A stretch of 64,000 nucleotides of DNA from Candidatus Zambryskiibacteriota bacterium (GTDB taxonomy: Bacteria; Patescibacteriota; Minisyncoccia; Phycocordibacterales; WO2-35-19): contig JAFGCQ010000004.1 in the NCBI GenBank assembly GCA_016932555.1, positions 990 to 64,989 of the forward strand, given 5' to 3'. The position numbers and the translations under genes were made by a program. Shown in pieces: positions 7,416 through 62,124 of the stretch. Each line of letters opens with the position of its first letter. The stretch's first letter is position 1. Under the pieces are notes generated by a model. It saw only the letters and a program-made list of their open reading frames with translations. It was not told the origin of the DNA and did no database searches.

Positions 7416-10052
<2,637 letters not shown>

Positions 10053-11860: not shown

Positions 11861-12689
11861 TTAAGAGAAATTTAATCTGAAAAATATCCAGATTTAATAA
11901 AAAGCTCAAAATAATTCCCAAAGAAAGGAAAGGGCCGAAGGGAATTTCAGATTTAATTGTAAAATTATTACTGAAAAGGGGCAAGTTTATATGTGATTTA
12001 ATTTTCTTAATTAATAAAACTAAAACTGAAAAAACCGCTCCTATCCAAAAAGCCAAAATTATCGCCGATAATCCCATCGCCGGCCCCAAGAAAAAACCTA
12101 AAACCGCTATGTATTTAACATCACCAAAACCGAACCAACGTCCTTTGGATATGAGAAATATTAACAGAAATGGGAGAGCCAGAATAATGCCCGTTACTAA
12201 ATTAAACAAGATTGCAGGCAAGCTTAGAGCTAAAAGCTTAAAGCTTAGAGCAAAAACAAAAAAGGCGATAAGAAAAGCGTCGGGGATAATAAAATGTTTG
12301 AGATCGTAAATAGAAATAAGTAAAATAATCGAAAATAAAGCCGTAATCAAAAGAAAACTAATTCCCATCTCTAAGCTCCAAGCTCTAAGCTCTAAGCTTA
12401 AAAAACCTGTCTCAAACGCCACTAAGACAACTAGAATACCCATGATTATCTCTATAATTATTGCCGATATTGGTATTTTAGCTTGACAGTATCGACATCT
12501 ACCTTTCAAAAATAAAAAAGAAAAAATGGGAAACAAATCTTTATTTTTAAGTTTAGTATTGCAAGAAAAACAAATTGAACGGCCCTTAAAAAAAGGTAAA
12601 CCCGTATTATACCGATCTGCTATAACACCCACAAAACTTCCTAAAGCAGTTCCAAATAGAAATATGACAACATCCCACAAATATAACAT
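11850..12689 (-). CDS. pilD: Prepilin peptidase (A24 family)
   Basis: Cys-rich CFSC...CRYC segment, multiple TM helices, IYDLKHFIIPD and GFGDVKY catalytic Asp motifs. ATG at 12689 preferred over the TTG at 12722. Confidence 0.8.
   Translation of the reverse strand: MLYLWDVVIFLFGTALGSFVGVIADRYNTGLPFFKGRSICFSCNTKLKNKDLFPIFSFLFLKGRCRYCQAKIPISAIIIEIIMGILVVLVAFETGFLSLELRAWSLEMGISFLLITALFSIILLISIYDLKHFIIPDAFLIAFFVFALSFKLLALSLPAILFNLVTGIILALPFLLIFLISKGRWFGFGDVKYIAVLGFFLGPAMGLSAIILAFWIGAVFSVLVLLIKKIKSHINLPLFSNNFTIKSEIPFGPFLSLGIILSFLLNLDIFQIKFLLNVF
12223..12250. repeat. Heptamer array CTTRRAG x4 inside pilD
   Basis: Inverted relative to the array at 12369-12396. Confidence 0.8.
12369..12396. repeat. 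Heptamer array CTCYAAG x4 inside pilD
   Basis: Reverse complement of the array at 12223-12250, 118 nt away. Confidence 0.8.
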
Positions 12690-21061: not shown

Positions 21062-21727
21062 ATGTCTTTATTTAAATTAGTAAATAACTGGATAAAGAAA
21101 ACTAGAGAGTTAATTTTTGATATCATTGCGCCCCATAATCAAAATATTCACAAACTTTTACAGCTTCCTCCAGAAACAATGAGAGATCTTCTGCCAAAAT
21201 CGGCAGTTTTTATGAAAGATGTTTTTGTACTCTTTGATTATCAAAACAAATTGGTCAGATTAATCATCAAAGCTATCAAATATAAAAATAACAATAATTT
21301 ACGTAGACGCATTGCTGGTATTTTATATGAAGAAATAATGGTTATGGCTTCTGATACTTCATTATTTGAAAATTCAAAAATTGTCCTTTTGCCTATGCCA
21401 ATGAGTAAATTAGAAAAAAGAAAAAAAAATTTCAATCAATGTGAAGAGCTTTGTAAAGAAATCAAAAAATTAGATAACCAAAATATAGAAATTTCTTTTA
21501 ATACTCTTAAAAAAATCAGAGAAACTAAAAGACAAACCGAGCTTAGCCGTTCTGAAAGAGAAAAAAATGTTAAAAATAGCATGAAAGCTACTCTTCAACA
21601 AGATCAGAGTCGCGTAGTTATCGTCTTAGATGATGTCTACACGACTGGTGCCTCTTTCAAAGAAGCTCGCCGAGCTCTTCTTTCTGCCGGTGCTCAGAGG
21701 ATAATTGGCCTTTTTATCGCCCATTAA
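21062..21727 (+). CDS. comF: ComF-family phosphoribosyltransferase
   Basis: VIVLDDVYTTGASFKEA PRPP motif. ATG at 21062 preferred over the TTG at 21038. Confidence 0.7.
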   Translation: MSLFKLVNNWIKKTRELIFDIIAPHNQNIHKLLQLPPETMRDLLPKSAVFMKDVFVLFDYQNKLVRLIIKAIKYKNNNNLRRRIAGILYEEIMVMASDTSLFENSKIVLLPMPMSKLEKRKKNFNQCEELCKEIKKLDNQNIEISFNTLKKIRETKRQTELSRSEREKNVKNSMKATLQQDQSRVVIVLDDVYTTGASFKEARRALLSAGAQRIIGLFIAH

Positions 21728-22314
21728 TCTCTTTCGTAAATTCCTGTAAGACCACCGGAAGCGATAAGATGATTTCTTATAAATCCTTCGAGTTCATCGT
21801 TATTTGTCTCTACTGGCAAATCAAGTTTAGTATCTAAAGCATAAAATTTAAATAAATAATGATGACTACCCGATGGCGGACATGGCCCGCCATAACCAGA
21901 ATTACCGAAGCTGGTTTGACCTTCTATTGCGCCTTTGGGTACATTGCCTTCGGTTATTTTATTTATATTTGGATCAATATTCCAGACAGTCCAATGCACC
22001 CAAACACCCGATGGGGCATCAGGATCGTCAGCAATAAGAGCCAAACTTTTAGCTTCAGGTGGTATATTTTCAATTTTAAAAGGCGGATTTATATTTTCCC
22101 CATCACAAGTATATTTGGATGGGATTTTACCACCCTCTTCAAAGGCGACGCTGGTTATTTTTAATATTTTCATATCTCCAATATTAATCATATTTTTATT
22201 AGATTCAAAACTAACAATAAAATCTGCTAAAGGTTCTGACCAATATCCTTTAGTAAAAATTAATCCTAATCCTAAAACAATAATTAATAAAAGTATTATT
22301 TGTAATTTACTCAT
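21724..22314 (-). CDS. YbhB/YbcL (PEBP) family protein with signal anchor
   Basis: DDPDAP...HW...GYGGPCPP...HHY motifs. Confidence 0.8.
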   Translation of the reverse strand: MSKLQIILLLIIVLGLGLIFTKGYWSEPLADFIVSFESNKNMINIGDMKILKITSVAFEEGGKIPSKYTCDGENINPPFKIENIPPEAKSLALIADDPDAPSGVWVHWTVWNIDPNINKITEGNVPKGAIEGQTSFGNSGYGGPCPPSGSHHYLFKFYALDTKLDLPVETNNDELEGFIRNHLIASGGLTGIYERD

Positions 22315-22319
22315 AACTC

Positions 22320-22586
22320 TTATTTTGCGATAAAATTCTTAAAATTTTCAACTATTCCCTTTTCAGATTCAAATCTGGTAATCTTAGCTTGTTTAAAATC
22401 ACGCTGCAACCAATTTAAAAATCCTTCAACCGCTTCCTTTTTACCCTCAATTTCCATATAAACTGTATTATCCGGATCATTACGAATAAAACCTTTAATA
22501 TCAAACTTCCCAGCTTTAACTTTAGCCATATAACGTAGGCCTATGCCTTGTACTTCTCCCCAAATTTTTGCATTAATATGAATCAT
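22320..22586 (-). CDS. Acylphosphatase
   Basis: GEVQGIGLRY motif; 88 aa. Confidence 0.8.
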   Translation of the reverse strand: MIHINAKIWGEVQGIGLRYMAKVKAGKFDIKGFIRNDPDNTVYMEIEGKKEAVEGFLNWLQRDFKQAKITRFESEKGIVENFKNFIAK

Positions 22587-22665
22587 TTTTATTGGAAGAG
22601 TTGTCTGATTTTTTAAGCTCTTTTCTTACAATAAATAATTGAAGATTTGAAACAAGCTGTTTAAA

Positions 22666-23202
22666 TTATTTCTTCTTAAATGGGAAGCCGAGAGTTTTGA
22701 GGAATTCTAGAGTGTCAGATTTATTTTTGAGATTAGTGACAATAGTAACGGCAAAGCCGAAAACATCCTTGAGATCTTCGTCGGAGGTTTCGGGGAAAAC
22801 AGTATGCTCTTTGACAGCTAAAGTGTAATTGCCCATTTCATCAACAGCCCCGGAGAAAATACCCCTGAAATCTTTGGTTCGCGGCAAAGCTATATTTAAA
22901 AGACGATCCAAAAAACTCCACATCCTTTCACCCCGAAGAGTTACTTGGACGCCAACAATATCTCCTTCCCTAGTTTTGAAAGAAGCAATTGATTTTTTAG
23001 CACCTTTTTTAATCGGTCTCTGGCCAGTAATTTTAGAGAGTCGATCTATGACCACTTCTAAACGGTTTTTATCTTTCGATGAACCGGTGCCGGAGCTTAT
23101 AACTACTTTTTCAATCTTTGGTGCTTGCATAATATTCTTTAACTTGAATGTATCTTTCAAGTTTTTGTATGATTCTTTTGTTCTATCTTTCATCATTTTC
23201 AT
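22666..23202 (-). CDS. rplE: 50S ribosomal protein L5
   Basis: Family-typical sequence; follows L24. Confidence 0.9.
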   Translation of the reverse strand: MKMMKDRTKESYKNLKDTFKLKNIMQAPKIEKVVISSGTGSSKDKNRLEVVIDRLSKITGQRPIKKGAKKSIASFKTREGDIVGVQVTLRGERMWSFLDRLLNIALPRTKDFRGIFSGAVDEMGNYTLAVKEHTVFPETSDEDLKDVFGFAVTIVTNLKNKSDTLEFLKTLGFPFKKK

Positions 23203-23211
23203 GTCAGCTTT

Positions 23212-23433
23212 TTAATTTTTAATTCTTTTAACATTTGATACATGTATCGGTGCGGCTTGATCAACTATTTTACCTTTTTCGTTACTCTTTTTTCTGCGTT
23301 GATGAACTTTTTTAATATTTATTCCTTCAATTAAAACCATGTCTGATTTAGGAAAGGCGCGTAAAATTATACCAGATTTACCTTTATCCTTACCAGTTAA
23401 TACTTTTACTTTATCTCCTTTTTTTACATGCAT
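23212..23433 (-). CDS. rplX: 50S ribosomal protein L24
   Basis: [19 protein letters not shown] motif. Confidence 0.85.
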
Positions 23434-23437
23434 ACTC

Positions 23438-23537
23438 TCGAATATTACGAATAAGATCGAATAATACGAATCCTATTTTTGCTATTAATTTGATTGTTCT
23501 TTATTTGTAGCATTCGATTAAATTTGTGGTTATTCGC
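23438..23537 (-). repeat. 100-nt intergenic element, copy A (between rplN and rplX)
   Basis: 99/100 identical to 33287-33386. Contains four CGAAT motifs about 9-10 nt apart. Confidence 0.9.
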
Positions 23538-23914
23538 TAGATGACTTCTGAAGCTAATGAAATAATGGCCTGATGGCCGGCCTCAGCAATTTCTCGAGGA
23601 ATAGGACCAAAGATTCTTCCTGCTCTTGGAGTAATTTCACCCTTCTTCTTATCTACTACAACTAATGCATTTTCATCAAATCGGATATAAGAACCATCTT
23701 TTCTGCGTAGTGGTGTCTTTTGGCGAATTACCATTCCTAATAGTACTGCTTTTTTCTTTATTTCTTTGCGAGGTTCAGCTTTTTGAACTGAAAATTTAAC
23801 CAGCTCGCCAATTCTAGCATAGCGCTTTTTAGAAGAACCTAATATTTTAAAAACCCGGCCGATTTTAGCACCTGAATTATCTGCTATTTTAACTATAGAA
23901 TTTGGCTGAATCAT
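23537..23914 (-). CDS. rplN: 50S ribosomal protein L14
   Basis: MIQ...ADNSGAK start; full-length match to the family. Confidence 0.9.
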   Translation of the reverse strand: MIQPNSIVKIADNSGAKIGRVFKILGSSKKRYARIGELVKFSVQKAEPRKEIKKKAVLLGMVIRQKTPLRRKDGSYIRFDENALVVVDKKKGEITPRAGRIFGPIPREIAEAGHQAIISLASEVI

Positions 23915-23940
23915 AATTTATGTTTTTACGATTTTACTAT

Positions 23941-24231
23941 TTACTTAATTATTATAAAATGCTTATCTTTTGATATTGGTTTAACTTCCTTGATTTCAAC
24001 TTTATCACCTATTTTCTTAGTATTACCAATATCATGGGTTTTATATTTTTTATTTACTTTGTAATATTTTCTGTATTTTTTATGTTTAACAAATCTTATT
24101 ACTGAAACCGTGCAAGTATCTTTCATTTTGTCTGATACTACAATACCCTTCAAGATTCTCGATCTGATTCCATTTTTCTTCTCTTCTGTTTTTTCTATTT
24201 TTTTATCCATAATTCTTAATTCATTATTCAT
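23941..24231 (-). CDS. rpsQ: 30S ribosomal protein S17 (N-terminal extension)
   Basis: LKGIVVSDKMKDT...V..HKKY core. Confidence 0.85.
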   Translation of the reverse strand: MNNELRIMDKKIEKTEEKKNGIRSRILKGIVVSDKMKDTCTVSVIRFVKHKKYRKYYKVNKKYKTHDIGNTKKIGDKVEIKEVKPISKDKHFIIIK

Positions 24232-24406
24232 TATTTATCTTCGTCAAAATTCTAGCAATTTCTTTTTTCAGATTTTTCTGCCTTTTAACATCCTTACTTT
24301 TACTACCAGCTATACCAAATCTTATATCACGCAAGGCTAGCTTTTTTTCATCAAGCTCTTTTTGTAAATCTTGTGTGATATTTTTTTTTGGTTTTTCTTT
24401 TTTCAT
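24224..24406 (-). CDS. rpmC: 50S ribosomal protein L29
   Basis: 60 aa; helical Lys-rich; positioned between L16 and S17. Confidence 0.8.
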   Translation of the reverse strand: MKKEKPKKNITQDLQKELDEKKLALRDIRFGIAGSKSKDVKRQKNLKKEIARILTKINNE

Positions 24407-24417
24407 AATCGTCTTTT

Positions 24418-24434
24418 ATTCGTATTATTCGATC
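24418..24434 (+). repeat. 17-nt fragment of the CGAAT element, inverted orientation (rplP-rpmC spacer)
   Basis: ATTCGTATTATTCGATC is the exact reverse complement of 23455-23471. Confidence 0.7.
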
Positions 24435-24444
24435 ATATTCACAG

Positions 24445-24864
24445 TTATTGGCGAGTAACTATTTTAGTTTTTACTGGCATTTTACAGCCACCTTTACGCA
24501 AAGATTCTCGGGCAATAATTTCCGAAGTGCTTTCAGCTTCAAAAAGAACTTGACCCGGTAAAATTCTTACTTGGTAACCTTCAATATCTCCTTTACCTTT
24601 ACCCATTTTCACTTCCGCCGGCTTTTTAGTAAAAGGCATATCTGGGAAAATACGGACCCAAACTCGGCCAGTTTTACCAAGATTTCGGCTAATAATTTTT
24701 CTAGCAGCTTCTATTTGATTAGAAGTAACTCGACCGGCAGAAATAGCTTTAAGACCATGTGAACCGAAAGAAATTTCTATCCCGCGAGTAGCTGGGCTTA
24801 TCTTGTTTGGATTTTTGCGCATTATATGCCATTTCCGATATTTAACTTTTTTAGGGAATAACAT
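24445..24864 (-). CDS. rplP: 50S ribosomal protein L16
   Basis: MLFPKKVKYRK start; family-typical sequence. Confidence 0.9.
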   Translation of the reverse strand: MLFPKKVKYRKWHIMRKNPNKISPATRGIEISFGSHGLKAISAGRVTSNQIEAARKIISRNLGKTGRVWVRIFPDMPFTKKPAEVKMGKGKGDIEGYQVRILPGQVLFEAESTSEIIARESLRKGGCKMPVKTKIVTRQ

Positions 24865-24895
24865 GATTTTAGGTTAATTGGTCAATTAAAATAAT

Positions 24896-25558
24896 TTATC
24901 CTTGCTTAGTAAAAATCTCACCCTTATAAATCCAAACCTTGATGCCAACTTTGCCGAGAGGCAATTTTGCTTCATAAAAAGCGTAATCAATGTCTGCCCG
25001 CAAAGTTTGCAAAGGAATTTGCCCAACCTTTTTACTCTCTACTCTAGCCATATTAGATCCTCCTAAGATACCAGAAAGAGTAATTTTCACACCTTTAACA
25101 TCACGGTTAGCAAAAGCTTTATCAATAATTGTTTTCATCACCCTACGAAAAGGCATCCTTTTTTCTAATCCTTCAGCTACCATCTGGGCAGCAATCATTG
25201 CACTAGACTCGGGTGACTTAACTTCTTTAATATCAATTTTTAATTCTTCGTTTAGATTAAATTTTTTGCGTTTTATAAAAACTAATATATCGCTTCTAAG
25301 TTTCTCCAACCCTTCACCATTGCGTCCAATAATAAAGCCGGGTCTAGATGATTCAATAATTATTCTAAAAGTTTTCACGCTTCTTTCTATTTCAATAGAA
25401 TTAACAAAAGATCCTTTCAAGCGTTTATATAAATATTCGTAAATTAAAACATCGCTTTTTAAATTTTCTTTATATTTATCTTTTACATCAAACCAGCGAG
25501 ACTTCCAATCACGAATGATGCCCAATCTATGAGAATATGGATGTACGGTGTGAGTCAT
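24896..25558 (-). CDS. rpsC: 30S ribosomal protein S3
   Basis: KH domain and S3 C-terminal domain sequence. Confidence 0.9.
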   Translation of the reverse strand: MTHTVHPYSHRLGIIRDWKSRWFDVKDKYKENLKSDVLIYEYLYKRLKGSFVNSIEIERSVKTFRIIIESSRPGFIIGRNGEGLEKLRSDILVFIKRKKFNLNEELKIDIKEVKSPESSAMIAAQMVAEGLEKRMPFRRVMKTIIDKAFANRDVKGVKITLSGILGGSNMARVESKKVGQIPLQTLRADIDYAFYEAKLPLGKVGIKVWIYKGEIFTKQG

Positions 25559-25565
25559 AATAATA

Positions 25566-25913
25566 TTAGCTTTTAGTTTTTAATTCATCTGATAAAACAA
25601 GCTTAATTTTTGAGGTTCTTTTTTTGATGGGATGAGCAGCTCCATGAGCTACTGGGCGGCGCCTAAAAAGAGTTTGGCCTTTATTTACAGTGATCGATTT
25701 AATTTTCAAATTATCGGTTTCAATACCAATGTTTTTAGCATTAGCTAGAGCCGAATTTAAAAGCTTTTGCAAGGGGCCAGTGGTTTTTTTGGTAATAAAA
25801 TTTAGTCGATTTCTGGCTTCCTTTACTGACTTGCCTCGAATAGCATCTGCTACTAAACGGACTTTCCGAGGAGATTGGCGATAATTATTAAGCTGTGCTG
25901 CAACTTCAACCAT
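25566..25913 (-). CDS. rplV: 50S ribosomal protein L22
   Basis: SPRKVRLVADAIRGK motif. Confidence 0.9.
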   Translation of the reverse strand: MVEVAAQLNNYRQSPRKVRLVADAIRGKSVKEARNRLNFITKKTTGPLQKLLNSALANAKNIGIETDNLKIKSITVNKGQTLFRRRPVAHGAAHPIKKRTSKIKLVLSDELKTKS

Positions 25914-25918
25914 ATTTT

Positions 25919-26266
25919 TTATTTACCGCTAGTGTTTTCTGCAGCAGTTTTAGCAGCTTTAGCTTGATTTATTTCTTCTTCTTTCTTTTTAGCTTCAAGT
26001 TCTTTTTGCATCTTACCACCATGTTTGATGAATTTGCGGGTGGGAGAAAATTCGCCCAAGCGGTGTCCGACCATATCTTCACTGACTAAAACTTCGATGT
26101 GATCTTTCCCATTATGAACTCCAAAAGTAAAACCGACCATTTCTGGAGAAATTACACAAGATCTAGACCATGTTTTAATAACCTCGGTATCTTCCGGTTT
26201 TTTCCCTTCAATTTTTTTAAGAACCCTTACATCTACGTAAGGTCCTTTTTTTAGCGATCGAGACAT
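25919..26266 (-). CDS. rpsS: 30S ribosomal protein S19 (Lys/Glu-rich C-terminal extension)
   Basis: [11 protein letters not shown] start at the internal ATG (ORF track extends to 26332). Confidence 0.9.
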
Positions 26267-26343
26267 TTTTTCAATATTAAACCCGCCTGGCGGGAATAGG
26301 TTATATACTAACAAATTAGGCCTCAAAGTCAATCCTTTTCTTA

Positions 26344-33286: not shown

Positions 33287-33386
33287 TCGAATATTACGAA
33301 TAAGATCGAATGATACGAATCCTATTTTTGCTATTAATTTGATTGTTCTTTATTTGTAGCATTCGATTAAATTTGTGGTTATTCGC
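33287..33386 (-). repeat. 100-nt intergenic element, copy B (between secE and nusG)
   Basis: 99/100 identical to 23438-23537, same orientation relative to the operon. Confidence 0.9.
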
Positions 33387-33595: not shown

Positions 33596-33620
33596 ATCAA
33601 AAAACCCCGTCTGGGGTTGT
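33596..33620 (-). terminator. Terminator after 33707-34519
   Basis: AACCCC/GGGGTT stem followed by TTTTTT on the minus strand. Confidence 0.6.
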
Positions 33621-33706
33621 TTGATTATACTTCAATAATACACAAACCACAATTCTTGTCAAATTTATATTCATGACATTTGATCTCATTCACGGTTATT
33701 CGAGAG

Positions 33707-40824: not shown

Positions 40825-41673
40825 CTAGTGTTTCTTCCCCACTTTTCTTCGACTGACGATAAACTTCTCTGAATATTTCTTGGGCGATCTGGTTTTTTGA
40901 CCTTTGCCAGTCGGTTTACCCCATTTAGAAACAGCTCTCCTTCGGCCGCGACCCTGTCTCCCCTCACCACCACCATGCGGATGATCAACCGGATTTTGGG
41001 CGGTGCCTCTAACAGTTGGTCTTATGCCTTTCCATCGGCTTTTGCCAGCTTTACCATAATTTTCAAGTTTTTTTTCTTCATTAGAAACTTCTCCGACACT
41101 GGCCCAGCAAGTTTCTTTAACCTTTCTAACCTCAGACGATGGCATTTTGAGATCTACCATTCCAGCGTCTTTAGCAATTACTTGAACGAAATTACCAGCA
41201 CTGCGAGCAATTTTGGCTCCACTTTTGGGTTTTAGTTCAACATTATAAATAAAAGTGCCAATTGGAATATCTTTAAGCGGCATTCGATTGCCCGTTTTTA
41301 TTTCTGCTCCTTCGGCTGTTAAAAACTCCTCGTTAAGATTTATACCTTTAGGTAAAAGTATATATTTTTTTTCACCATCTCTATAAATTACAAGACCAAT
41401 AAAACCAGTGCGATTTGGGTCATATTCTATAGAAGTTACTCTGTAAGGAATACCAATTTTGTTATATTTAAAATCAACTTCTCTAAAAAGCCTTTTGTTT
41501 CCTGACCCTTTGTGGCGAGTAGTAATCCGACCAGCATTATTTCTGCCAACTGCTCTTTTGCGTCCAAAAGTTAAAGATTTTTCTGGTTTGGTTTTAGTTA
41601 GTAAAGACTTATAAAACACATTGGCCATATGCCTTCTGGATTTAGTTTTTGGTTTGTATTTTTTGATGCTCAT
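40825..41673 (-). CDS. rplB: 50S ribosomal protein L2
   Basis: Full-length family match including NPVDHPHGGGEG. Confidence 0.9.
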   Translation of the reverse strand: MSIKKYKPKTKSRRHMANVFYKSLLTKTKPEKSLTFGRKRAVGRNNAGRITTRHKGSGNKRLFREVDFKYNKIGIPYRVTSIEYDPNRTGFIGLVIYRDGEKKYILLPKGINLNEEFLTAEGAEIKTGNRMPLKDIPIGTFIYNVELKPKSGAKIARSAGNFVQVIAKDAGMVDLKMPSSEVRKVKETCWASVGEVSNEEKKLENYGKAGKSRWKGIRPTVRGTAQNPVDHPHGGGEGRQGRGRRRAVSKWGKPTGKGQKTRSPKKYSEKFIVSRRKVGKKH

Positions 41674-41711
41674 TTTATTTTCTTATTTCGTAACTCTTAA
41701 CTCGTATCCCG

Positions 41712-41999
41712 TTACTCTATCTTATCTCCTTTTTTCAGATAAACATAAGCTTTTTTCACTCCTGATTTGGTACCTTTTTTACCTCGTATAAAAACTCGCT
41801 TTGTTGGATTCTTAACAATATTAATTTTTATAGGCTTAATTTTGTAAAAAACTTCAATAGCTTTAGCAATTTGGTTTTTAGTGGCCTCTGAAGAAACCTC
41901 GAAGGTATGGGTATTCGCTTCTGCAGCTAAATTAGCCTTTTCAGTAATTCTAGGTCTTAAAATAATATTTGCGTATTTTGCTTTTAAATCTTTCATCAT
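41712..41999 (-). CDS. rplW: 50S ribosomal protein L23
   Basis: ILRPRITEK...FEV motif; position in the cluster. Confidence 0.85.
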   Translation of the reverse strand: MMKDLKAKYANIILRPRITEKANLAAEANTHTFEVSSEATKNQIAKAIEVFYKIKPIKINIVKNPTKRVFIRGKKGTKSGVKKAYVYLKKGDKIE

Positions 42000-42008
42000 G
42001 TTTAAATT

Positions 42009-42677
42009 TTATTTAAGCTTTAAAGATAAAATTTCAATTGATTTTTTTGGATTAACAATAATAAGGTTCCTATATTGAAGCAAATCTAAAATATTCAAAT
42101 CTTTCACTTGTCCAATCTTCAGATTACTAAAATTACCGAAGCTCTTTAAAATATTGTTATCTTTTTCTCCCAAAATTAAAAAGCATGCATTTTTTCTTCC
42201 CTTCAACGAATCAAATCCTTTAATTTTAGTTAATGAAGTCAAGATGTTTTTAGCTTCTTTAGCTTTCGGCTCTTTAAAGACAAAATTGTCAATTAAAATA
42301 ATTTCGCCATCGCTAAGTTTTTTAGAAAGTATACTGAAAAGCGCTTTGACCTTCATTTTTTTATTTATTTTTCTAGAATAATTTTTGTCAGCTCTGGGTC
42401 CGTGAGCTACACCGCCGCCGATCCAGATAGGTGACCGGCGAGAACCATGCCTAGCTTGACCAGTACCTTTTTGTTTCCAAGGCTTCCTGCCAGTACCGGA
42501 AACTTCACCTCGAATCTTAGCGTGAGCGGTACCAGTACGTTTATTCGTCATCATGGAATCCACCATTTGACGAACCAGTCTTTCAGTTTTGGTATTCCAA
42601 GATAAACCAAAAACTTCTAGGGGAAGTTTTATTTCTCCTGTTTCTTTCCCTTCTTGATTGTAAATTTTTGCTTCCAT
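42009..42677 (-). CDS. rplD: 50S ribosomal protein L4
   Basis: GTGRKPWKQKGTGQARHGS motif. Confidence 0.9.
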   Translation of the reverse strand: MEAKIYNQEGKETGEIKLPLEVFGLSWNTKTERLVRQMVDSMMTNKRTGTAHAKIRGEVSGTGRKPWKQKGTGQARHGSRRSPIWIGGGVAHGPRADKNYSRKINKKMKVKALFSILSKKLSDGEIILIDNFVFKEPKAKEAKNILTSLTKIKGFDSLKGRKNACFLILGEKDNNILKSFGNFSNLKIGQVKDLNILDLLQYRNLIIVNPKKSIEILSLKLK

Positions 42678-42713
42678 AATTTTAATCTCGAGTTACGATA
42701 AACAAGTCAAGAG

Positions 42714-43346
42714 TTACGATTTCGAATTTCGTGTTTCGTTACTCACATTTTTTACTTCAACTAATGTTCCTCTTCTACCGGGTATTGCTCCAGAGACCAA
42801 TAAATTGTTGTTCTCCATATCAATACCTACTACTTTAAGATTTTTAACTGTTATTCTTTTACCTCCCATGCGACCAGCCATTCTAGTACCTTTAAGAACT
42901 CTTTGTACACCACCAACTCCGATAGAACCCGGTTCTCTTTCAGAATGTTTCTGGCCATGAGTACGGGGACCACCATGAAAACCATGTCTCTTCACAACCC
43001 CCTGAAAACCTTTAGCTTTAGATATGGCTGAAACAGCAACAGTATCTCCTATTTCAAAAATATCAGCTAAAATCTTTTCATTTTTTTTGAATTCTATATT
43101 TTCTACTCTAAACTCCTTAAGAACAGCTGGTTTTAATTCTCCCAAGTGGCCCTTAAGCGGTTTAGAGATTTTGTTCTCCTTGCGATAGCCGAAAGCGACT
43201 TGAACAGCATTATAGCCATCTTTTTCGTTAGTTTTGATGAAAGAGACTACATTAGGTTCCACGTTCAAAACAGTCACCGGAGTCACTCTGTTATCTTCCC
43301 CAAAGATTTGGGTCATATTTACCTTTTTGGCCAATAAAAATTTCAT
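42714..43346 (-). CDS. rplC: 50S ribosomal protein L3
   Basis: KKVNMTQIF start region; FQGVVKRHGF motif. ATG at 43346 preferred. Confidence 0.9.
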   Translation of the reverse strand: MKFLLAKKVNMTQIFGEDNRVTPVTVLNVEPNVVSFIKTNEKDGYNAVQVAFGYRKENKISKPLKGHLGELKPAVLKEFRVENIEFKKNEKILADIFEIGDTVAVSAISKAKGFQGVVKRHGFHGGPRTHGQKHSEREPGSIGVGGVQRVLKGTRMAGRMGGKRITVKNLKVVGIDMENNNLLVSGAIPGRRGTLVEVKNVSNETRNSKS

Positions 43347-43366
43347 GCTACAAATTTCCACAAATT

Positions 43367-43385
43367 AGATCGAATGATACGAATA
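43367..43385 (-). repeat. Fragment of the CGAAT element in the rpsJ-rplC spacer
   Basis: AGATCGAATGATACGAAT is an 18-nt exact match to 33303-33320. Further CGAAT/ATTCG motifs run to about 43430. Confidence 0.7.
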
Positions 43386-43460
43386 AAGACTTTTTTATTC
43401 GCGCGAATAAAAAATGCCGCTCGGCTCCGAATAAATTAACAAATATTCCGTTAAATTGCA

Positions 43461-43482
43461 AGCCCCCGCCGAGGCGGGGGCT
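43461..43482 (-). other. GC-rich stem-loop between rpsJ and rplC
   Basis: AGCCCCCGCC-GA-GGCGGGGGCT; 10-bp self-complementary arms, 6 nt after the S10 stop. Confidence 0.6.
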
Positions 43483-43488
43483 TAAGAG

Positions 43489-43914
43489 TTACATTATCTT
43501 TACATCTATGTTCACCCCTGAGGGTAAAGATAGATTGGTCAGAGAGTCCATTATTTTAGGAGAAGGATTGATAATATCAATCACCCTGCGATGAATTCGC
43601 ATTTCAAACTGTTCTCTCGCATTTTTATAGATAAATGGCGAGCGATTAACGGTATATTTCTTAATTTGAGTAGGTAAAGGGATAGGCCCCACTACCTGAG
43701 CATCATAACGCAAAGCGGTATCTATAATCTGCTTTACTGAAATATCAAGCACTTTGTATTCATAAGCCATTACCCTGATACGAAGCTTAGAAATTAAGTC
43801 TTCTTTCTTTTTTTTAGAAGATTTTTTTGCAATAGTTTTCTTCTCCTTTTTATCTTTTTCTTGCCCGACTTTGTTTTTCAGGCGGGTTTCTTTTTTTAAT
43901 GTGCTCTCTGCCAT
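43489..43914 (-). CDS. rpsJ: 30S ribosomal protein S10 with Lys-rich N-terminal extension of about 40 aa
   Basis: Core KLRIRVMAYEYKVLD...; no alternative start nearer the core. Confidence 0.85.
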   Translation of the reverse strand: MAESTLKKETRLKNKVGQEKDKKEKKTIAKKSSKKKKEDLISKLRIRVMAYEYKVLDISVKQIIDTALRYDAQVVGPIPLPTQIKKYTVNRSPFIYKNAREQFEMRIHRRVIDIINPSPKIMDSLTNLSLPSGVNIDVKIM

Positions 43915-57305: not shown

Positions 57306-57656
57306 ATGACAAGAGTTCATAATATCCGCAAACTTTCAGATCGCAGGAAAGAATTACGAAAAAACCAAACAAAAACCGAAGAAAAACTCTGGTGGTATTT
57401 GAAAGATAAGAGGCTGGGAATTAAATTCAGAAGACAGCACAGTATAGGAGGATATATTTTAGATTTTATATGCAAAGAAAAGAAATTGATTATAGAAATT
57501 GATGGTAGAGTACATTTGAAAAAAGATAATAAAGAATACGATAAAGTTAGAGACAAATATTTTGAAGAGTTAAATTATAAAGTTCTGAGATTTACGAATG
57601 ATGAGGTTGAAAATGGGGTTAAAGAGATTATTGATGTTATAAAGCGGTATCTTTAA
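57306..57656 (+). CDS. DUF559 (Vsr-like) endonuclease-domain protein
   Basis: TEEKLWWYLK...FRRQHSIGGYILDF...IEIDG..H...D..RD..L...GY.VLRF pattern. Confidence 0.8.
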   Translation: MTRVHNIRKLSDRRKELRKNQTKTEEKLWWYLKDKRLGIKFRRQHSIGGYILDFICKEKKLIIEIDGRVHLKKDNKEYDKVRDKYFEELNYKVLRFTNDEVENGVKEIIDVIKRYL

Positions 57657-57702
57657 CCCCCACCCCTCAATTCGTGTAGCCCTTCTCTTGATCAGGGGAG
57701 GG
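57657..57702 (-). repeat. Family B GC-rich element, inverted copy
   Basis: Its reverse complement aligns along the whole length of 58407-58451 (about 80 percent by eye). Confidence 0.75.
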
Positions 57703-57724
57703 AAAACCAAAATCATACAAAAAG

Positions 57725-57748
57725 AAAACCGCCATTCAGCGGTTTTCG
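57725..57748. terminator. Bidirectional terminator between convergent genes
   Basis: AAAACCGC-CATTCA-GCGGTTTT with T-runs on both strands. Confidence 0.6.
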
Positions 57749-57770
57749 GTTGAAAATCATTGAAGAGCGA

Positions 57771-58322
57771 TTATATCAAAATCCTCCCATTATACTCATG
57801 GAACCCGATTTCTCCACTGGTAGCCGTGAAAAAAATATGCTCCATTCCAGCAAAATTTTCGAATCCGCCCCCGAGAAAAATAGTGTTTTCATACTTAAGA
57901 AGGTTTTTATCATAGTTTCCTACACGAGTATCATTATAAAAACCGTGTGTAGCTAAACCTCGTCCACCATGGAATTCACGTTGTTTGTAGGCGTAATTAA
58001 GCGCCATTTTCAAAAAACTGATCACTTCCTTAGGATAACATCCAGAATAAGACATCCACCACACGGCCATCCATCTTCCTCTGGGTCTGAACCTATAAAA
58101 GATAGTGGTTGTACCGGCGGAAAAATCTGAAAGCGGTGTCACACAATAGTGATCTACCACTTTGTAGTTACCGGATACAAAAGTGATTCTTTTGTATCCG
58201 CTAGATTCTATGACTTTAACAGAATTCTTTTTGTTTCCAGCATATCCGTCAAGCATAGCATCGAAGAATACTTTTTCTGCTTTTTGAATGATTTTCTTTC
58301 TCTGTTTGGACTCTAGTTCCAC
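57771..58322 (-). CDS. Hypothetical protein, DUF5680-like (tentative)
   Basis: Pattern ...AMLDGYAGN...W.MSYSG....EVISFLK.AL...FHGGRG recalls DUF5680. From memory only. Confidence 0.4.
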   Translation of the reverse strand: MELESKQRKKIIQKAEKVFFDAMLDGYAGNKKNSVKVIESSGYKRITFVSGNYKVVDHYCVTPLSDFSAGTTTIFYRFRPRGRWMAVWWMSYSGCYPKEVISFLKMALNYAYKQREFHGGRGLATHGFYNDTRVGNYDKNLLKYENTIFLGGGFENFAGMEHIFFTATSGEIGFHEYNGRILI

Positions 58323-58406
58323 TGTTGGCTCCTTTCACCCATTAGGTCTGACTCAGGTTATACAACAATATAAAAATTAAAGCAAGAATAAAAAATACCG
58401 CGCGTT

Positions 58407-58451
58407 CCCTCCCCCGTCCAGGGGGAGGGCTACACGAAGTGAGGGGTGGGG
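58407..58451 (+). repeat. Family B GC-rich element abutting the secY stop codon
   Basis: CCCTCCCC-CGTCC-AGGGGGAGGG hairpin plus CTACACGAAGTGAGGGGTGGGG tail. Confidence 0.75.
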
Positions 58452-58452
58452 A

Positions 58453-59724
58453 TTAATATTCTCTTGCAGAGATTTGAGCATCAACTTTTTTAACGAGATC
58501 AAGAACCACTGAAACTACGATAAGAAGTCCTGTACCGCCTATAGCCACTGCGCTGATACCAGTAGCCGCCCTTACTATTAAAGGCAAAACAGCAATTAAT
58601 CCCAAGAAAATAGCGCCAATCATGGTTAAACGGGAAAGGATTTTGGCTATATATGAGGAAGTCGAGGAACCGGGTCGAACTCCCGGAATAAAAGCACCGC
58701 CTCTCTGTAAATTTTTGGAAAGATTCTCCGGATCAAAAGTAATAGCTGTGTAGAAATAAGTAAAAACAAAAACTAATAAGAAGTAGGCAATGCCATAAAA
58801 AATCTGGTTAGAAAGCAAAGCAAGTAGAAATTCAGAAATCTTTTGGATTATAGTATTGTCTACATTAGCTAAAAAGCGGATTATCATTTGAGGAAAAAGT
58901 AATATGGAAAGAGCAAAAATTATAGGAATCACCCCAGCTTGATTAACTCTTAAAGGTAAATAAGTGGAAACTCCACCATACATTTTATTACCTCTAACTT
59001 GTTTAGCGTAAGTTATCGGTATGGGTCTTTCTGCTTCAGTAATAACTACTACACCCCAAATCACTGCTATGGCAGCCGCCAGAAAGCCAATATACATCGG
59101 CAATTGAGATGGATCAAAAGCAAATAAAAGCTGGCTAGTCGCACTGGGTAAAATAGCAACAATGCCGGCAAAAATGATAAGCGAGACTCCGTTACCAATA
59201 CCAAATTCAGATACTAACTCACCAAGCCACATAAGAAGCATTGAACCGGCAGCAATTACTATAAGATTTGTTAGCAATTCAAAACCAGCAAGTTTACTTA
59301 AAACATTCTGATTTTGAAGAAGAATAATAAAAGCATAACCTTGCATTAAAGCTAGAGGCACAGTCAAAAATCTTGAATATTGAGAAAATTTTCTGCGTCC
59401 TAATTCACCCTCTTCTTGATACATAGCCTTGAGTTTAGGAAACATAACAGTCATAAGCTGCATAATAATAGAAGCGGTAATATATGGCGACACACCGAGC
59501 ATAATAATTGAAAGATTAGACAAACCACCACCCGAAAAGATATTTAAAAGTCCAAAGAAATCATTATCAGACATAAACTGCTCTAATTTAAAAGTATCAA
59601 TACCGGGAATTGGGATAGAGGCCATCAAACGGAAGAGAGCCAACATTACAAGGGTAAAAATTATTCTCTTTCTTAAATTTTTATCCCCTAAGACTAATTT
59701 TATTTTGTGAATAAAATTTTGCAT
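58453..59724 (-). CDS. secY: Preprotein translocase subunit SecY
   Basis: Ten-TM SecY sequence; follows rplO. Confidence 0.95.
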   Translation of the reverse strand: MQNFIHKIKLVLGDKNLRKRIIFTLVMLALFRLMASIPIPGIDTFKLEQFMSDNDFFGLLNIFSGGGLSNLSIIMLGVSPYITASIIMQLMTVMFPKLKAMYQEEGELGRRKFSQYSRFLTVPLALMQGYAFIILLQNQNVLSKLAGFELLTNLIVIAAGSMLLMWLGELVSEFGIGNGVSLIIFAGIVAILPSATSQLLFAFDPSQLPMYIGFLAAAIAVIWGVVVITEAERPIPITYAKQVRGNKMYGGVSTYLPLRVNQAGVIPIIFALSILLFPQMIIRFLANVDNTIIQKISEFLLALLSNQIFYGIAYFLLVFVFTYFYTAITFDPENLSKNLQRGGAFIPGVRPGSSTSSYIAKILSRLTMIGAIFLGLIAVLPLIVRAATGISAVAIGGTGLLIVVSVVLDLVKKVDAQISAREY

Positions 59725-59729
59725 TCAAT

Positions 59730-60149
59730 TTATTTGCTTAAATTTTTGACCTTTTTTGAAGTTTCAATATTTTCAAAAATAAAGTTTTTCTTTATTTCTT
59801 TATCAGCTAAAATTTTTGCTTTCGGAATTCGGCCGTTCTTTTTATTTATAATACCTTTTTCTAACAAAACTTGATGATTTATCTTATCTCCTGCAGAAAA
59901 ATTTTTATCTAAAATGGAAAGCTTTATTGGCATAGCTTTTTCAAGTCGAGACTTAAGAAAATTTTTACCTCGACCTCTTAATTTTGGTAATTTTTTAATT
60001 ATATCACGCATTTCTGGTCTTTTTTTCCTGCCGGCCCTGGCATTTTGGCCTTTGGTGCCGCGACCAGAAGTCTTGCCGCGTTTACCCCCCCGACCAATTT
60101 TTTTGGCTTTCCGATTAGTTCTATTTTTTTTTAAATTATGGAATTGCAT
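59730..60149 (-). CDS. rplO: 50S ribosomal protein L15
   Basis: GRGGKRGKTSGRGTKGQ motif. Confidence 0.85.
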   Translation of the reverse strand: MQFHNLKKNRTNRKAKKIGRGGKRGKTSGRGTKGQNARAGRKKRPEMRDIIKKLPKLRGRGKNFLKSRLEKAMPIKLSILDKNFSAGDKINHQVLLEKGIINKKNGRIPKAKILADKEIKKNFIFENIETSKKVKNLSK

Positions 60150-60177
60150 TGCACGAATATTACTAATAAGATTAAGT

Positions 60178-60789
60178 CTAAGAATTAATTTTTACTTTTT
60201 CTTTATTTTTCTCTTTCAGTTGTAAAAGAGCTTTTACCGCAGCTCTGGCAATATTAAGCTTGTTTTTTGATCTGGAAAGAATTTTTGAAGAAACTTCTTT
60301 TATCCCAGCCAGTTCGAGAACTACTCTCACTGCACTGCCAGCAATCACTCCTTTCCCAGGAGCAGGATTAAGAAATATTTCAGCACTAGCGTATTTGGTA
60401 TTTACCGGATGAGCAATAGAGCCTTTGTCAGTTAAAGATACTTTAATTATATGTTTTTTTGCGTCTCGGATAGCTTTTTCTATGGCAATAGGAGTATCAC
60501 CAGCTTTACCAATACCCACACCCACTCTGCCTTTTCTATCGCCAATTACTACCACAATACTAAAACTGAACCTGCGACCACCGGCAACTACTCTGGTTAC
60601 TCTTCTAATGTCTATTATTTTATTATCAAACTCTTGTTTAACCCTTGCCGGACGTCGAGAAGGTCGGCGTTCATTTTTTTGTCGAAATTTAGTTTTATTT
60701 TCATTTTTAAAATTGTTGTTTATTTTAGTTTTTTTATCAGTTTTTTCAACTTCTTTTCTATCTTCTTTTTTTATTTCTTTTTCTTCCAT
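60178..60789 (-). CDS. rpsE: 30S ribosomal protein S5 with Lys/Glu-rich N-terminal extension of about 55 aa
   Basis: RVTRVVAGGRRFSF...GVGIGKA core. Confidence 0.9.
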   Translation of the reverse strand: MEEKEIKKEDRKEVEKTDKKTKINNNFKNENKTKFRQKNERRPSRRPARVKQEFDNKIIDIRRVTRVVAGGRRFSFSIVVVIGDRKGRVGVGIGKAGDTPIAIEKAIRDAKKHIIKVSLTDKGSIAHPVNTKYASAEIFLNPAPGKGVIAGSAVRVVLELAGIKEVSSKILSRSKNKLNIARAAVKALLQLKEKNKEKVKINS

Positions 60790-60800
60790 AATAATTTTAA

Positions 60801-61148
60801 TTAAAACTCTAAACCAGCCTTCCTGGCACCCTGGGCTAAAGCAGCAATTCTACCAGTATAAAGATAGCCCTCTCTATCAAATACTACTTTAGTGATTTTT
60901 TTGGTTTTAGCTTGTTTAGCGATTTCTGCCCCAACTTCACCTGCTTTATCTAAAACCGATTTACTTTTAATGTTTTTGCTAGAAGCAAAAGCTAAACTTA
61001 CACCTTTTTCATCATCAATAAGTTGAGCAGAAATATATTTATTCGATCTAAAAACAGAGAGTCTGGGTCTTTCTGCTACACCAAAAATTTTAGCTTTTAT
61101 ACGCTTTTTTCTCCTGTTTCTTTTTTCTGTTTTTAATTTAGTATTCAT
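60801..61148 (-). CDS. rplR: 50S ribosomal protein L18
   Basis: [20 protein letters not shown] motif. Confidence 0.9.
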
Positions 61149-61153
61149 AACTT

Positions 61154-61705
61154 TTAAACTGTTTTCTTACCTTGTTTTCTTCTTATAATTTCATTCTCAT
61201 AACGAAAACCCTTGCCTTTATAAGGTTCCGGTTTTTTTAAGCTTCTTACTTTGGCAGTAAAAGCTCCGACTAACTCTTTATCAAAACCAAATATAGTAAT
61301 GAGATTCTTTTCAGCTTTTACTTCCAAGCCGTCAGGGATTAGAACTTCTACCGGATGGGAAAAACCCAGAGAAAGAATCAACTTATTGCCTGCCTGCGCA
61401 GGCAGGCCATTAACTTGGGATTTAAAACCTACGCCTTCTAATACTAATTTTTTTTCAAAACCATCATTAACTCCTTTTATCATGTTTTTTATATGAGAGG
61501 CATAAGTACCCCATAGAGCCTTAGTTTGATTATTTTCTTTGGGTATAGAAAGATTGATATGATTTTCTTCAATTTTAATTACTACATCATCACGAAATTT
61601 TCTTTCCAATAAACCTTTTGGACCTTTCACAAAAAAAACGTTATCTTTTAAGGAGACTTCTGTACCTGGTAGTATCTTTATTTCTTTTTTACCTATTCTT
61701 GACAT
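61154..61705 (-). CDS. rplF: 50S ribosomal protein L6
   Basis: MSRIGKK start; two L6 repeats; carries the insert GLPAQAG before [12 protein letters not shown]. Confidence 0.9.
61388..61407. repeat. 20-nt perfect palindrome GCCTGCCTGCGCAGGCAGGC, in-frame in rplF
   Basis: Self-complementary; same core as 1432-1449. Confidence 0.9.
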
Positions 61706-61731
61706 AATTATTTATAGTGAGCGTAGTCGAA

Positions 61732-62124
61732 CTACCAAATATTAAACAAATGTTCTCCTCCTAAATTTTCTTTTTTAGCATCAACATCGGTTCTAATACC
61801 TTCAGGAGTCGAAAAAATCGACATGCCAAAACCTTTCTTAAAAATTTTTATGTCCTTAGCTTTAGTATATAAGCGTCTTGATGGCTTAGAAATTCTTTTA
61901 ACTTCAGAGATTACCGGTTTTCCATCCTCTTGATATAATAATTCTACCTCCAGAGATTTTGTGCTGCCGCGACTTTTTTGACTTACATTACCAAGATAAT
62001 TTTTAACAGACAAAAGTTCAGCAATAGCAAGCTTTAAATTGGAAAAAGGCACGGAAACTTTTTCCTTTTTCATAATACTTGCATTCTTCACTCTTATTAT
62101 AAAATCTCCTATTGGATCGTTCAT
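61732..62124 (-). CDS. rpsH: 30S ribosomal protein S8
   Basis: MNDPIGDFIIRVKNA start. Confidence 0.9.
   Translation of the reverse strand: MNDPIGDFIIRVKNASIMKKEKVSVPFSNLKLAIAELLSVKNYLGNVSQKSRGSTKSLEVELLYQEDGKPVISEVKRISKPSRRLYTKAKDIKIFKKGFGMSIFSTPEGIRTDVDAKKENLGGEHLFNIW

Follow-up and report, generated by a model that had tools for sequence, protein, structure and literature searches.

The 64,000-nt stretch of DNA analysed here (the window) covers positions 990 to 64,989 of contig JAFGCQ010000004.1 (assembly GCA_016932555.1) from a Candidatus Zambryskiibacteriota bacterium. A 100-nt non-coding element occurs in it twice, at 23438-23537 (copy A) and 33287-33386 (copy B). Copy A lies between rplN (ribosomal protein L14; 23914-23537) upstream and rplX (L24, 73 aa; 23433-23212) downstream, and copy B between secE (33566-33390) and nusG (33282-32737); the four genes were identified by Pfam and are all on the minus strand. 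Base 23537 is both the final base of the rplN TAG stop codon and the first base of copy A, copy B begins 3 nt past the secE TAA, and both copies finish 4 nt short of the downstream ATG. The gapless alignment showed 99 identical bases out of 100, with A23463 versus G33312 as the sole difference, and the identity ends sharply at both element borders. When the window was searched with up to 3 mismatches allowed, only copies A and B were found, and 100 dinucleotide-preserving shuffles gave no matches. An earlier sequence-only reading of the window had reported the near-identity, the filling of both spacers in the same orientation and the distances to stop and start codons, and these observations were borne out by the alignment, the shuffles and the gene coordinates.

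On the plus strand, one arm of the element reads T-CGAAT-ATTA-CGAAT-AAGAT-CGAAT-AATA-CGAAT and is followed by a 31-nt A/T-rich centre; the second arm reads ATTTG-TAGC-ATTCG-ATTAA-ATTTG-TGGTT-ATTCG-C. In copy A, the four CGAAT motifs occupy 23439-23471, the centre 23472-23502 and the inverted array (ATTTG/ATTCG/ATTTG/ATTCG) 23503-23536; the two arrays of copy B are at 33288-33320 and 33352-33385. The CGAAT motifs are spaced by 9, 10 and 9 nt and lie at the start-proximal end, as had been noted before, where they read AUUCG in the mRNA. Two of the four motifs of the inverted arm are altered (C>T). Besides the arrays, the ends of the element are themselves inverted (CGAATA...TATTCG), and the single-nucleotide polymorphism (SNP) G33312 gives the palindrome of copy B one extra base pair.

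The 100-nt repeat is real and not an assembly artefact, because independent contigs from the Logan assembly of the source sample (SRR13394437) break where a k=31 graph should at a two-copy, one-SNP repeat. Contigs L001 (nusG) and L212 (rplX) start 60 nt upstream of their genes, 30 nt before the SNP, and carry the respective copy-specific alleles, and contig L121 stops 29 nt beyond the rplN stop. A 100-nt repeat exceeds common k-mers and can cause chimeric joins, by which the repeat or one of its placements would be a mis-join in this metagenome-assembled genome (MAG), with the intervening 9.8 kb conceivably misplaced. This explanation is scarcely credible, as three of the four junctions were recovered in the Logan assembly with linkage to the copy-specific SNP, the secE side of copy B being the exception, and the gene order between the copies agrees with that of relatives.

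The sequence-only reading had proposed a search for further copies. In the window, blastn-short returned three fragments, all of them decayed, and no third full copy. The first, at 24418-24440 (E = 2e-5), is inverted, is identical at 22 of 23 bases to element positions 12-34 and lies in the 38-nt rplP/rpmC spacer. The second, at 43358-43389 (E = 1e-3), is also inverted, matches positions 61-92 at 28 of 32 bases and lies in the rpsJ/rplC spacer, where a degenerate array (CAAAT, CAAAT, CGAAT, CGAAT) extends over 43351-43384. The third, at 60154-60172 (E = 5e-3), has the same orientation as the element, matches positions 2-20 at 18 of 19 bases and makes up most of the 28-nt spacer after rpsE; the gene that follows occupies the L15 position upstream of secY. 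All five sites, two full and three fragmentary, are spacers between co-oriented genes. The rpsJ/rplC spacer, approximately 127-142 nt long according to the rplC start chosen, additionally holds a perfect 24-nt palindrome (TTTTTTATTCGCGCGAATAAAAAA) with one ATTCG/CGAAT pair and, directly after the rpsJ stop, a GC-rich hairpin (AAGCCCCCGCCGAGGCGGGGGCTT), recorded together at 43391-43414 and 43461-43484.

In relatives with 87-89% identical NusG, the secE/nusG spacer measures -4 to 18 nt, and neither the element nor any CGAAT array was found in approximately 100 kb of their contigs. Copy B is therefore a lineage-specific insertion, which, together with the decayed fragments in other spacers, agrees with the recent duplication suggested previously. 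The rplP/rpmC spacer is 38 nt here versus 1-13 nt in three relatives; in contig L209 it extends to 58 nt and contains another hairpin. Among relatives further removed (L5 76-79% identical), the rplN/rplX spacer is filled with different inserts, namely ATTGAAA/TTTCAAT arrays in L209 and an inverted repeat (CCCGTTAGAAAT/ATTTCTAACGGG) in L210. The L24/L5 spacer of L210 contains three CTAATTA motifs followed by three AATTAG motifs with a 9-nt period. CAAT arrays, ACTAA repeats and a GC-rich hairpin (CCCCTCTC) were also seen in the ribosomal-operon spacers of these related Zambryskibacteria, the palindromic or periodic inserts being located at 1102-1159, 1637-1694, 2073-2155 and 2375-2500 of L209 and at 2126-2194 and 2414-2500 of L210; in other relatives these spacers measure 1-13 nt. 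In this clade, then, palindromic or periodic sequences peculiar to single lineages have repeatedly settled in the spacers between cistrons.

The pattern CGAAT-N4-CGAAT-N5-CGAAT-N4-CGAAT, with 20 fixed bases, was scanned against one genome per prokaryotic species (596 Gb). By our calculation, which assumes uniform base composition, approximately 1 match is expected by chance in this volume; at least 119 loci across many bacterial phyla were found, with several matches in single genomes. The matches listed, from which the counts of hairpin units, solo arrays, enclosed open reading frames (ORFs) and spacings given below were drawn, include Bacteroidota, Planctomycetota, Desulfobacterota/Syntrophia, Chloroflexota, Elusimicrobiota, WOR-3, Acidobacteriota, Verrucomicrobiota and others. 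The common architecture consists of about four (C)ACGAAT motifs, a variable centre and inverted ATTCGT(G) motifs, and it occurs in three forms: hairpin pairs, solo arrays, and paired arrays with a gene for a GxxExxY protein of about 125 aa between them. Membership of the family was defined by at least 3-4 CGAAT motifs at 9-10 nt, an inverted partner within about 130 nt and a short spacer near stop and start codons. Copies A and B show all three, with 0-3 nt separating them from the stop codon and 4 nt from the ATG. Among the 46 hairpin units, many fill the spacer from the stop codon to the Shine-Dalgarno (SD) site or ATG. One Anaerolineae MAG carries 7 near-identical copies of approximately 195 nt, each a longer palindrome built around the CGAAT hairpin.

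A profile of the units showed that the information is confined to (C)A-CGAAT, with a spacing of 9 nt in 309 cases and 10 nt in 200. The bases between motifs are uninformative and the arms are only 33-60% complementary there, so the conserved thing is the periodic motif and not a continuous helix. Three Syntrophia-type MAGs (L021, L046 and L076) have a CGAAT hairpin in the same position ahead of an Hcp-like gene, and by our count the motifs are conserved (58/60 positions) and the spacers diverged (25/39), which indicates selection on the motif, whether for the host or for the element. CGAAT arrays were also found on 35 viral contigs (IMG/VR, L213-L247), mostly as solo arrays and mostly without GxxExxY; some of them fill precisely the gap between a stop codon and the following ATG (L213 8786-8818, L220, L236, L244). 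Rfam gave no gathering-score match in 15 family loci, and no description of CGAAT arrays or of arrays flanking GxxExxY genes was found in the full-text literature; judged by these two sources, the family is apparently undescribed.

The sequence-only reading had suggested that the element could be an internal promoter/operator cassette or a binding array for a regulator, shared by ribosomal and translocation operons. A host regulatory cassette of this kind, whether an operator array or an internal promoter, would co-control the ribosomal-protein and secE-nusG operons. A conserved hexamer at a 9-10 bp period is typical of cooperative DNA-binding sites, the element contains TATTAT and TAATAT hexamers, and all five sites in the window are in translation-related operons. 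However, the same operons of relatives lack the element, which largely refutes co-control, the window fragments have decayed, and the same architecture is found in many phyla between unrelated genes (rfb, polysaccharide-biosynthesis and Hcp-like loci) and on phage contigs. The only sigma-70 promoter candidate, TTAATA-16-TATTAT, matches at 9 of 12 positions, which is background frequency (4 found, 3.4 expected), and was rejected; its -10 hexamer contains the sole SNP that separates the two copies and reads TATCAT in copy B, and a strong promoter (11/12) is already present ahead of secE. A protein-binding array remains plausible from the confinement of information to (C)ACGAAT at 9-10 nt; operon-specific regulation found no support. 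We therefore regard a shared regulatory cassette as highly improbable, and the appealing notion of one regulator for the ribosomal and Sec/NusG operons, which had no support, is set aside. What was found is essentially a generic repeat unrelated to operon context, the outcome that the sequence-only reading had itself named as speaking against regulation.

Where the two arrays of a family member are 365-475 nt apart, they enclose an ORF of 105-130 aa matching TIGR04256 ("GxxExxY protein") and PF13366 (PDDEXK_3) with E values of approximately 1e-34 to 1e-42. The 119 loci listed hold ten GxxExxY ORFs, of which eight have CGAAT arrays on both sides. After clustering of the 221 array-adjacent ORFs, GxxExxY was the only recurrent enclosed cargo; the other clusters were orthologous host neighbours, and neither four-helix-bundle/S23p nor GIY-YIG cargo was found among these ORFs. 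Hairpin-only and cassette forms coexist in the same MAG in CAZXBI01 (L031 with L053 and L073) and VGRY01 (L065 with L049). In Flavobacterium granuli a cassette lies between rfbD and rfbB, and in a Thermodesulfobacteriota MAG one lies within a polysaccharide-biosynthesis operon, with the ACGAAT array continuing into the annotated N-terminus of the protein. In the CGAAT clade, the annotated N-terminus (M-x-T-N-x-T-N...) is encoded by the array, ACG-AAT giving Thr-Asn (L248 9989-10021), and residues 1-6 of this array-encoded part had a predicted local distance difference test score (pLDDT) below 50; these genes probably start further downstream than annotated.

The association was examined in reverse with 80 GxxExxY genes from Joint Genome Institute (JGI) metagenomes (L129-L208), which were picked by protein similarity alone. 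A periodic 5-mer array was present within 170 nt of 52 of the 71 genes having both flanks (73%) versus 3.5% and 7.0% of controls, and an inverted partner array on the other side was present for 35 of the 71 (49%) versus none of 2,412 controls. The motif itself varied: most of the sampled genes are flanked by arrays of short motifs other than CGAAT with the same period (CACGAAA, CACGAAG, CGCCAAG, CACAGAT, CGCAGAT, ACAGGAT, CACGGAT and GATTA), the majority of the flank motifs conforming to C-R-C plus four variable bases. The array motif tracks the protein clade, the nearest protein neighbour sharing the motif in 46 of 69 cases, versus a mean of 10.6 and a maximum of 24 in 1,000 permutations. Statistically, the association of GxxExxY genes with periodic arrays is strong. 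The cassettes lie in operons, with the upstream neighbour co-oriented in 43 of 49 cases and both neighbours in 34 of 49.

The one survey found to include the GxxExxY family lists it as being of unknown function with multiple horizontal transfers (PMC3424549). The family retains the D...E-x-K signature. A sequence search of the PDB gave no relative, and PADLOC and PHROGs gave only marginal Cas4-like matches. The AlphaFold (AF2) model of the protein (pLDDT 83, predicted template-modelling score 0.77) was closest to Cas4 SSO0001, lambda exonuclease, archaeal splicing endonuclease and the Holliday-junction resolvase Hjc, with template-modelling scores of approximately 0.5, and the protein is accordingly predicted to have a generic minimal PD-(D/E)XK nuclease fold; the fold search pointed to no particular function.

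Action in the mRNA also has to be considered, the hairpin or the AUUCG repeats serving as an intercistronic element for RNase processing or stabilisation, as an array for an RNA-binding protein, or in translational coupling of rplX and nusG. Co-transcription is certain if the operons are intact. The family's hairpin units lie mostly between co-oriented genes (27 of 31 classifiable units among the matches listed), just after a stop and before an SD site or ATG, the upstream co-orientation of GxxExxY cassettes is similar, a 22-codon ORF within the element stops 11 nt short of the following ATG, and the motifs are conserved at the orthologous site of the three Syntrophia-type species. A co-orientation of 73-87% is near the usual bacterial baseline, however, and was for this reason given little weight as functional evidence. 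A cis-acting RNA signal should be directional, but in the sense strand solo arrays read CGAAT in 30 cases and ATTCG in 31, and the better-folding strand of the hairpin units is unrelated to the direction of transcription (sense 15, antisense 11); such orientation neutrality would fit a double-stranded DNA site or a passive insert. In the window, the antisense plus strand folds better (-23.2 kcal/mol, z = -3.1, helped by G-U pairs) than the mRNA-sense strand, whose fold is weak (-12.5 to -13.9 kcal/mol, z = -1.3 to -1.8), the rplP/rpmC fragment and the S10/L3 copy are inverted, and close relatives lack the element. Rfam 15 gave no match to the element even at E of 10 or below, the gathering-score matches in the window being tRNAs only. 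An RNA element is on this evidence unlikely, and the small RNA offered by the sequence-only reading finds no support in the Rfam result, the sense-strand fold or the orientation counts. A small RNA from the better-folding plus strand was also considered and rejected, as it has no promoter or terminator and the family is without strand bias.

Considering these results, we regard it as probable that the element is an interspersed, non-autonomous and imperfectly palindromic repeat resembling miniature inverted-repeat transposable elements (MITEs) and repetitive extragenic palindromic (REP) sequences, a gene-less member of the CGAAT-array family that was recently copied into intercistronic spacers. 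Like a MITE, it is small (100 nt), non-coding, multicopy (two full and three fragmentary copies within the 64 kb) and bounded by terminal inverted repeats. Other genomes hold cassettes in which the same arrays flank a gene for a GxxExxY nuclease, a putative mobiliser. The functional core would be the inverted arrays of the hexamer (A/T)CGAAT every 9-10 bp, read as DNA and not as a directional RNA signal. The complete form would consist of an array, the PD-(D/E)XK nuclease gene of about 125 codons and an inverted array, embedded in host operons, and the copies in the window would be its gene-less form. The arrays may serve as binding sites for a GxxExxY-type nuclease, which may mobilise the cassettes and, in trans, the gene-less copies; we infer this from the bracketing arrangement, which is like that of REP-flanked transposase genes, from the match between motif and protein clade and from the periodic anatomy of the motifs.

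The host would tolerate such copies as they sit between cistrons, contain no terminator and have no SD site to remove. An SD-like motif was found at only 8 of the 91 ORF starts in the window, several of these being doubtful ORFs or lying within a GC-rich insert, and translation initiation in this genome appears to be largely SD-independent; the ORF starts are preceded by A/T-rich sequence. No SD site is present or needed at rplX. Since the genome hardly uses SD sites, no ribosome-binding site is lost to an insert that stops 4 nt short of the ATG, and any effect on the expression of rplX or nusG would be incidental.

Another origin for gene-less copies is internal deletion, by which the two copies would be remnants of two cassettes that lost the GxxExxY gene and were kept identical by gene conversion. 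An array, a short centre and a second array are the expected product of such a deletion, and F. granuli has an array-rich, ORF-less spacer of 600 nt beside an intact cassette. Nevertheless, two independent deletions would not yield an identical 31-nt centre, the identity stops exactly at the element borders, and the Anaerolineae MAG, with its 7 near-identical copies lacking the gene, shows that it is the gene-less form itself that multiplies. A deletion footprint is for these reasons quite improbable.

Several observations weigh against a mobile repeat. The two insertions show no target-site duplication, the flanks (CATCTA/...GAGTATG and TAATCT/...TCATATG) sharing nothing, and the copies in the window are weak palindromes, their DNA folding with -6.8 to -12.4 kcal/mol on both strands. 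No GxxExxY gene is present in the 64-kb window or in 130 kb from relatives, a scan of JGI metagenomes with the subfamily pattern TCGAATNNTACGAATNNNNTCGAATNNTACGAAT gave 0 matches, and the CGAAT motif flanks only 8 of the 80 sampled GxxExxY genes. We know of no PD-(D/E)XK protein of the GxxExxY family that has been shown to bind or move anything. The location of all five window sites in translation-related operons and the filling of the same spacers by other periodic palindromes in relatives hint at a spacer-specific property behind these sites, such as high transcription, exposed single-stranded DNA or a host function. Finally, the persistence of the hairpin at the orthologous site in L021, L046 and L076 could mean a host-level function and not selfish spread.

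A wider proposal, which is possible but which we hold only tentatively, is that the arrays are the cis ends of unrecognised selfish elements found across phyla. GxxExxY would be their sole gene, and its product would bind the clade-specific array and move both cassettes and gene-less hairpins into spacers. If true, this would be a mobilisation mechanism distinct from those of DDE, HUH, serine or tyrosine enzymes. Recognition of the arrays by the nuclease would also give a practical rule by which thousands of so far unexplained intergenic repeats, and assembly breaks in metagenomes, could be annotated. The GxxExxY link is the most interesting and most testable outcome of the analysis, and it offers a testable function for a large family annotated only as "GxxExxY protein" or as PD-(D/E)XK of unknown function. 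The insertions also show that a reduced Candidate Phyla Radiation genome can accommodate, in its essential operons, recent 100-nt inserts that stop 4 nt short of a start codon.

Other features of the window were recorded. The S10/spc ribosomal cluster is split into three blocks (21724-26332, 40825-43914 and 59730-62124), with rpsH-rplF-rplR-rpsE-(L15 position)-secY located 36 kb away. The gene for arginyl-tRNA synthetase is immediately upstream of rpsS, and acylphosphatase and PEBP-family genes follow rplE, the usual place of rpsN/rpsH. Ahead of secE (33603-33662), the strong promoter, TTGACA-16-TATTAT (33662-33635), is followed by a hairpin with a T-run (AACCCCAGACGGGGTTTTTTGA) and then the secE start; this hairpin is conserved in all relatives examined (L122-L128; for example AAACCCCGTAAGGGGTTTTTT) and may be a leader or attenuator structure. 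A DUF559 (Vsr-like PD-(D/E)XK) ORF on the plus strand (57306-57656) adjoins a 52-nt GC-rich inverted repeat (57653-57704 and 58405-58456, 85% complementary), which brackets a GC-richer ORF of 183 aa (57771-58322) with an SD site and a weak match to DUF5680; the region 57306-58456 resembles a cassette that was inserted separately. Inverted and tandem copies of a AAGCTTAGAGCT-like unit are present at 7638-7682 and 12220-12399, 4.7 kb apart.

The element and its family were compared with known repeat systems. The intervening sequences of 23S rRNA with an S23p/four-helix-bundle ORF, as in Coxiella (PMC4990558), are similarly small selfish cassettes, with an ORF bracketed by inverted repeats within a highly transcribed housekeeping transcript, but differ in the ORF family, the site at rRNA helix 45 and the stem processed by RNase III. 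The MITEs Correia/NEMIS of Neisseria, RUP/BOX of pneumococcus and RPE of Rickettsia are like the present element in being non-coding sequences of approximately 100 nt with inverted ends that are co-transcribed and vary among relatives. Here, in contrast, no target-site duplication was seen and no DDE transposase partner is known, and those MITEs are lineage-restricted, whereas the CGAAT family is found across phyla and has internal periodic arrays.

Mycobacterial interspersed repetitive units (MIRUs) share the location in intercistronic operon spacers, from the upstream stop to the downstream start. They are tandem units of 46-100 bp, oriented with the operon and coupled to small ORFs, whereas the CGAAT arrays are palindromic, and two of the five window sites being inverted, the orientation neutrality of the solo arrays and the period of 9-10 nt set the family apart from MIRUs. 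Iteron or heptad operator arrays, such as those of omega of pSM19035 and ParR/parC, also consist of several short motifs, some direct and some inverted, spaced by about one helical turn, and their spacers are likewise uninformative; they sit at plasmid promoters or centromeres, whereas the CGAAT arrays are dispersed in chromosomal intercistronic spacers and are linked to a nuclease.

REP sequences and bacterial interspersed mosaic elements (BIMEs), with the REP-associated tyrosine transposases (RAYTs; arrangements known as REPINs and "REPtrons"), are likewise short, multicopy extragenic palindromes, often within operons, in which the presumed mobilising gene is flanked by inverted repeats and gene-less copies far outnumber the gene. 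The present family differs in that its protein is a PD-(D/E)XK protein of the GxxExxY type and not a Y1 HUH transposase, that GxxExxY genes are multicopy, and that a 5-6-nt motif recurring every 9-10 nt takes the place of the 20-40-nt palindrome with a GTAG/CGTC head. In the family loci examined, the cargo was PF13366 only and the motif was CGAAT, which separates them from REP/RAYT systems. If the nuclease recognises the arrays, this would be a new protein-repeat partnership comparable to REP/RAYT.

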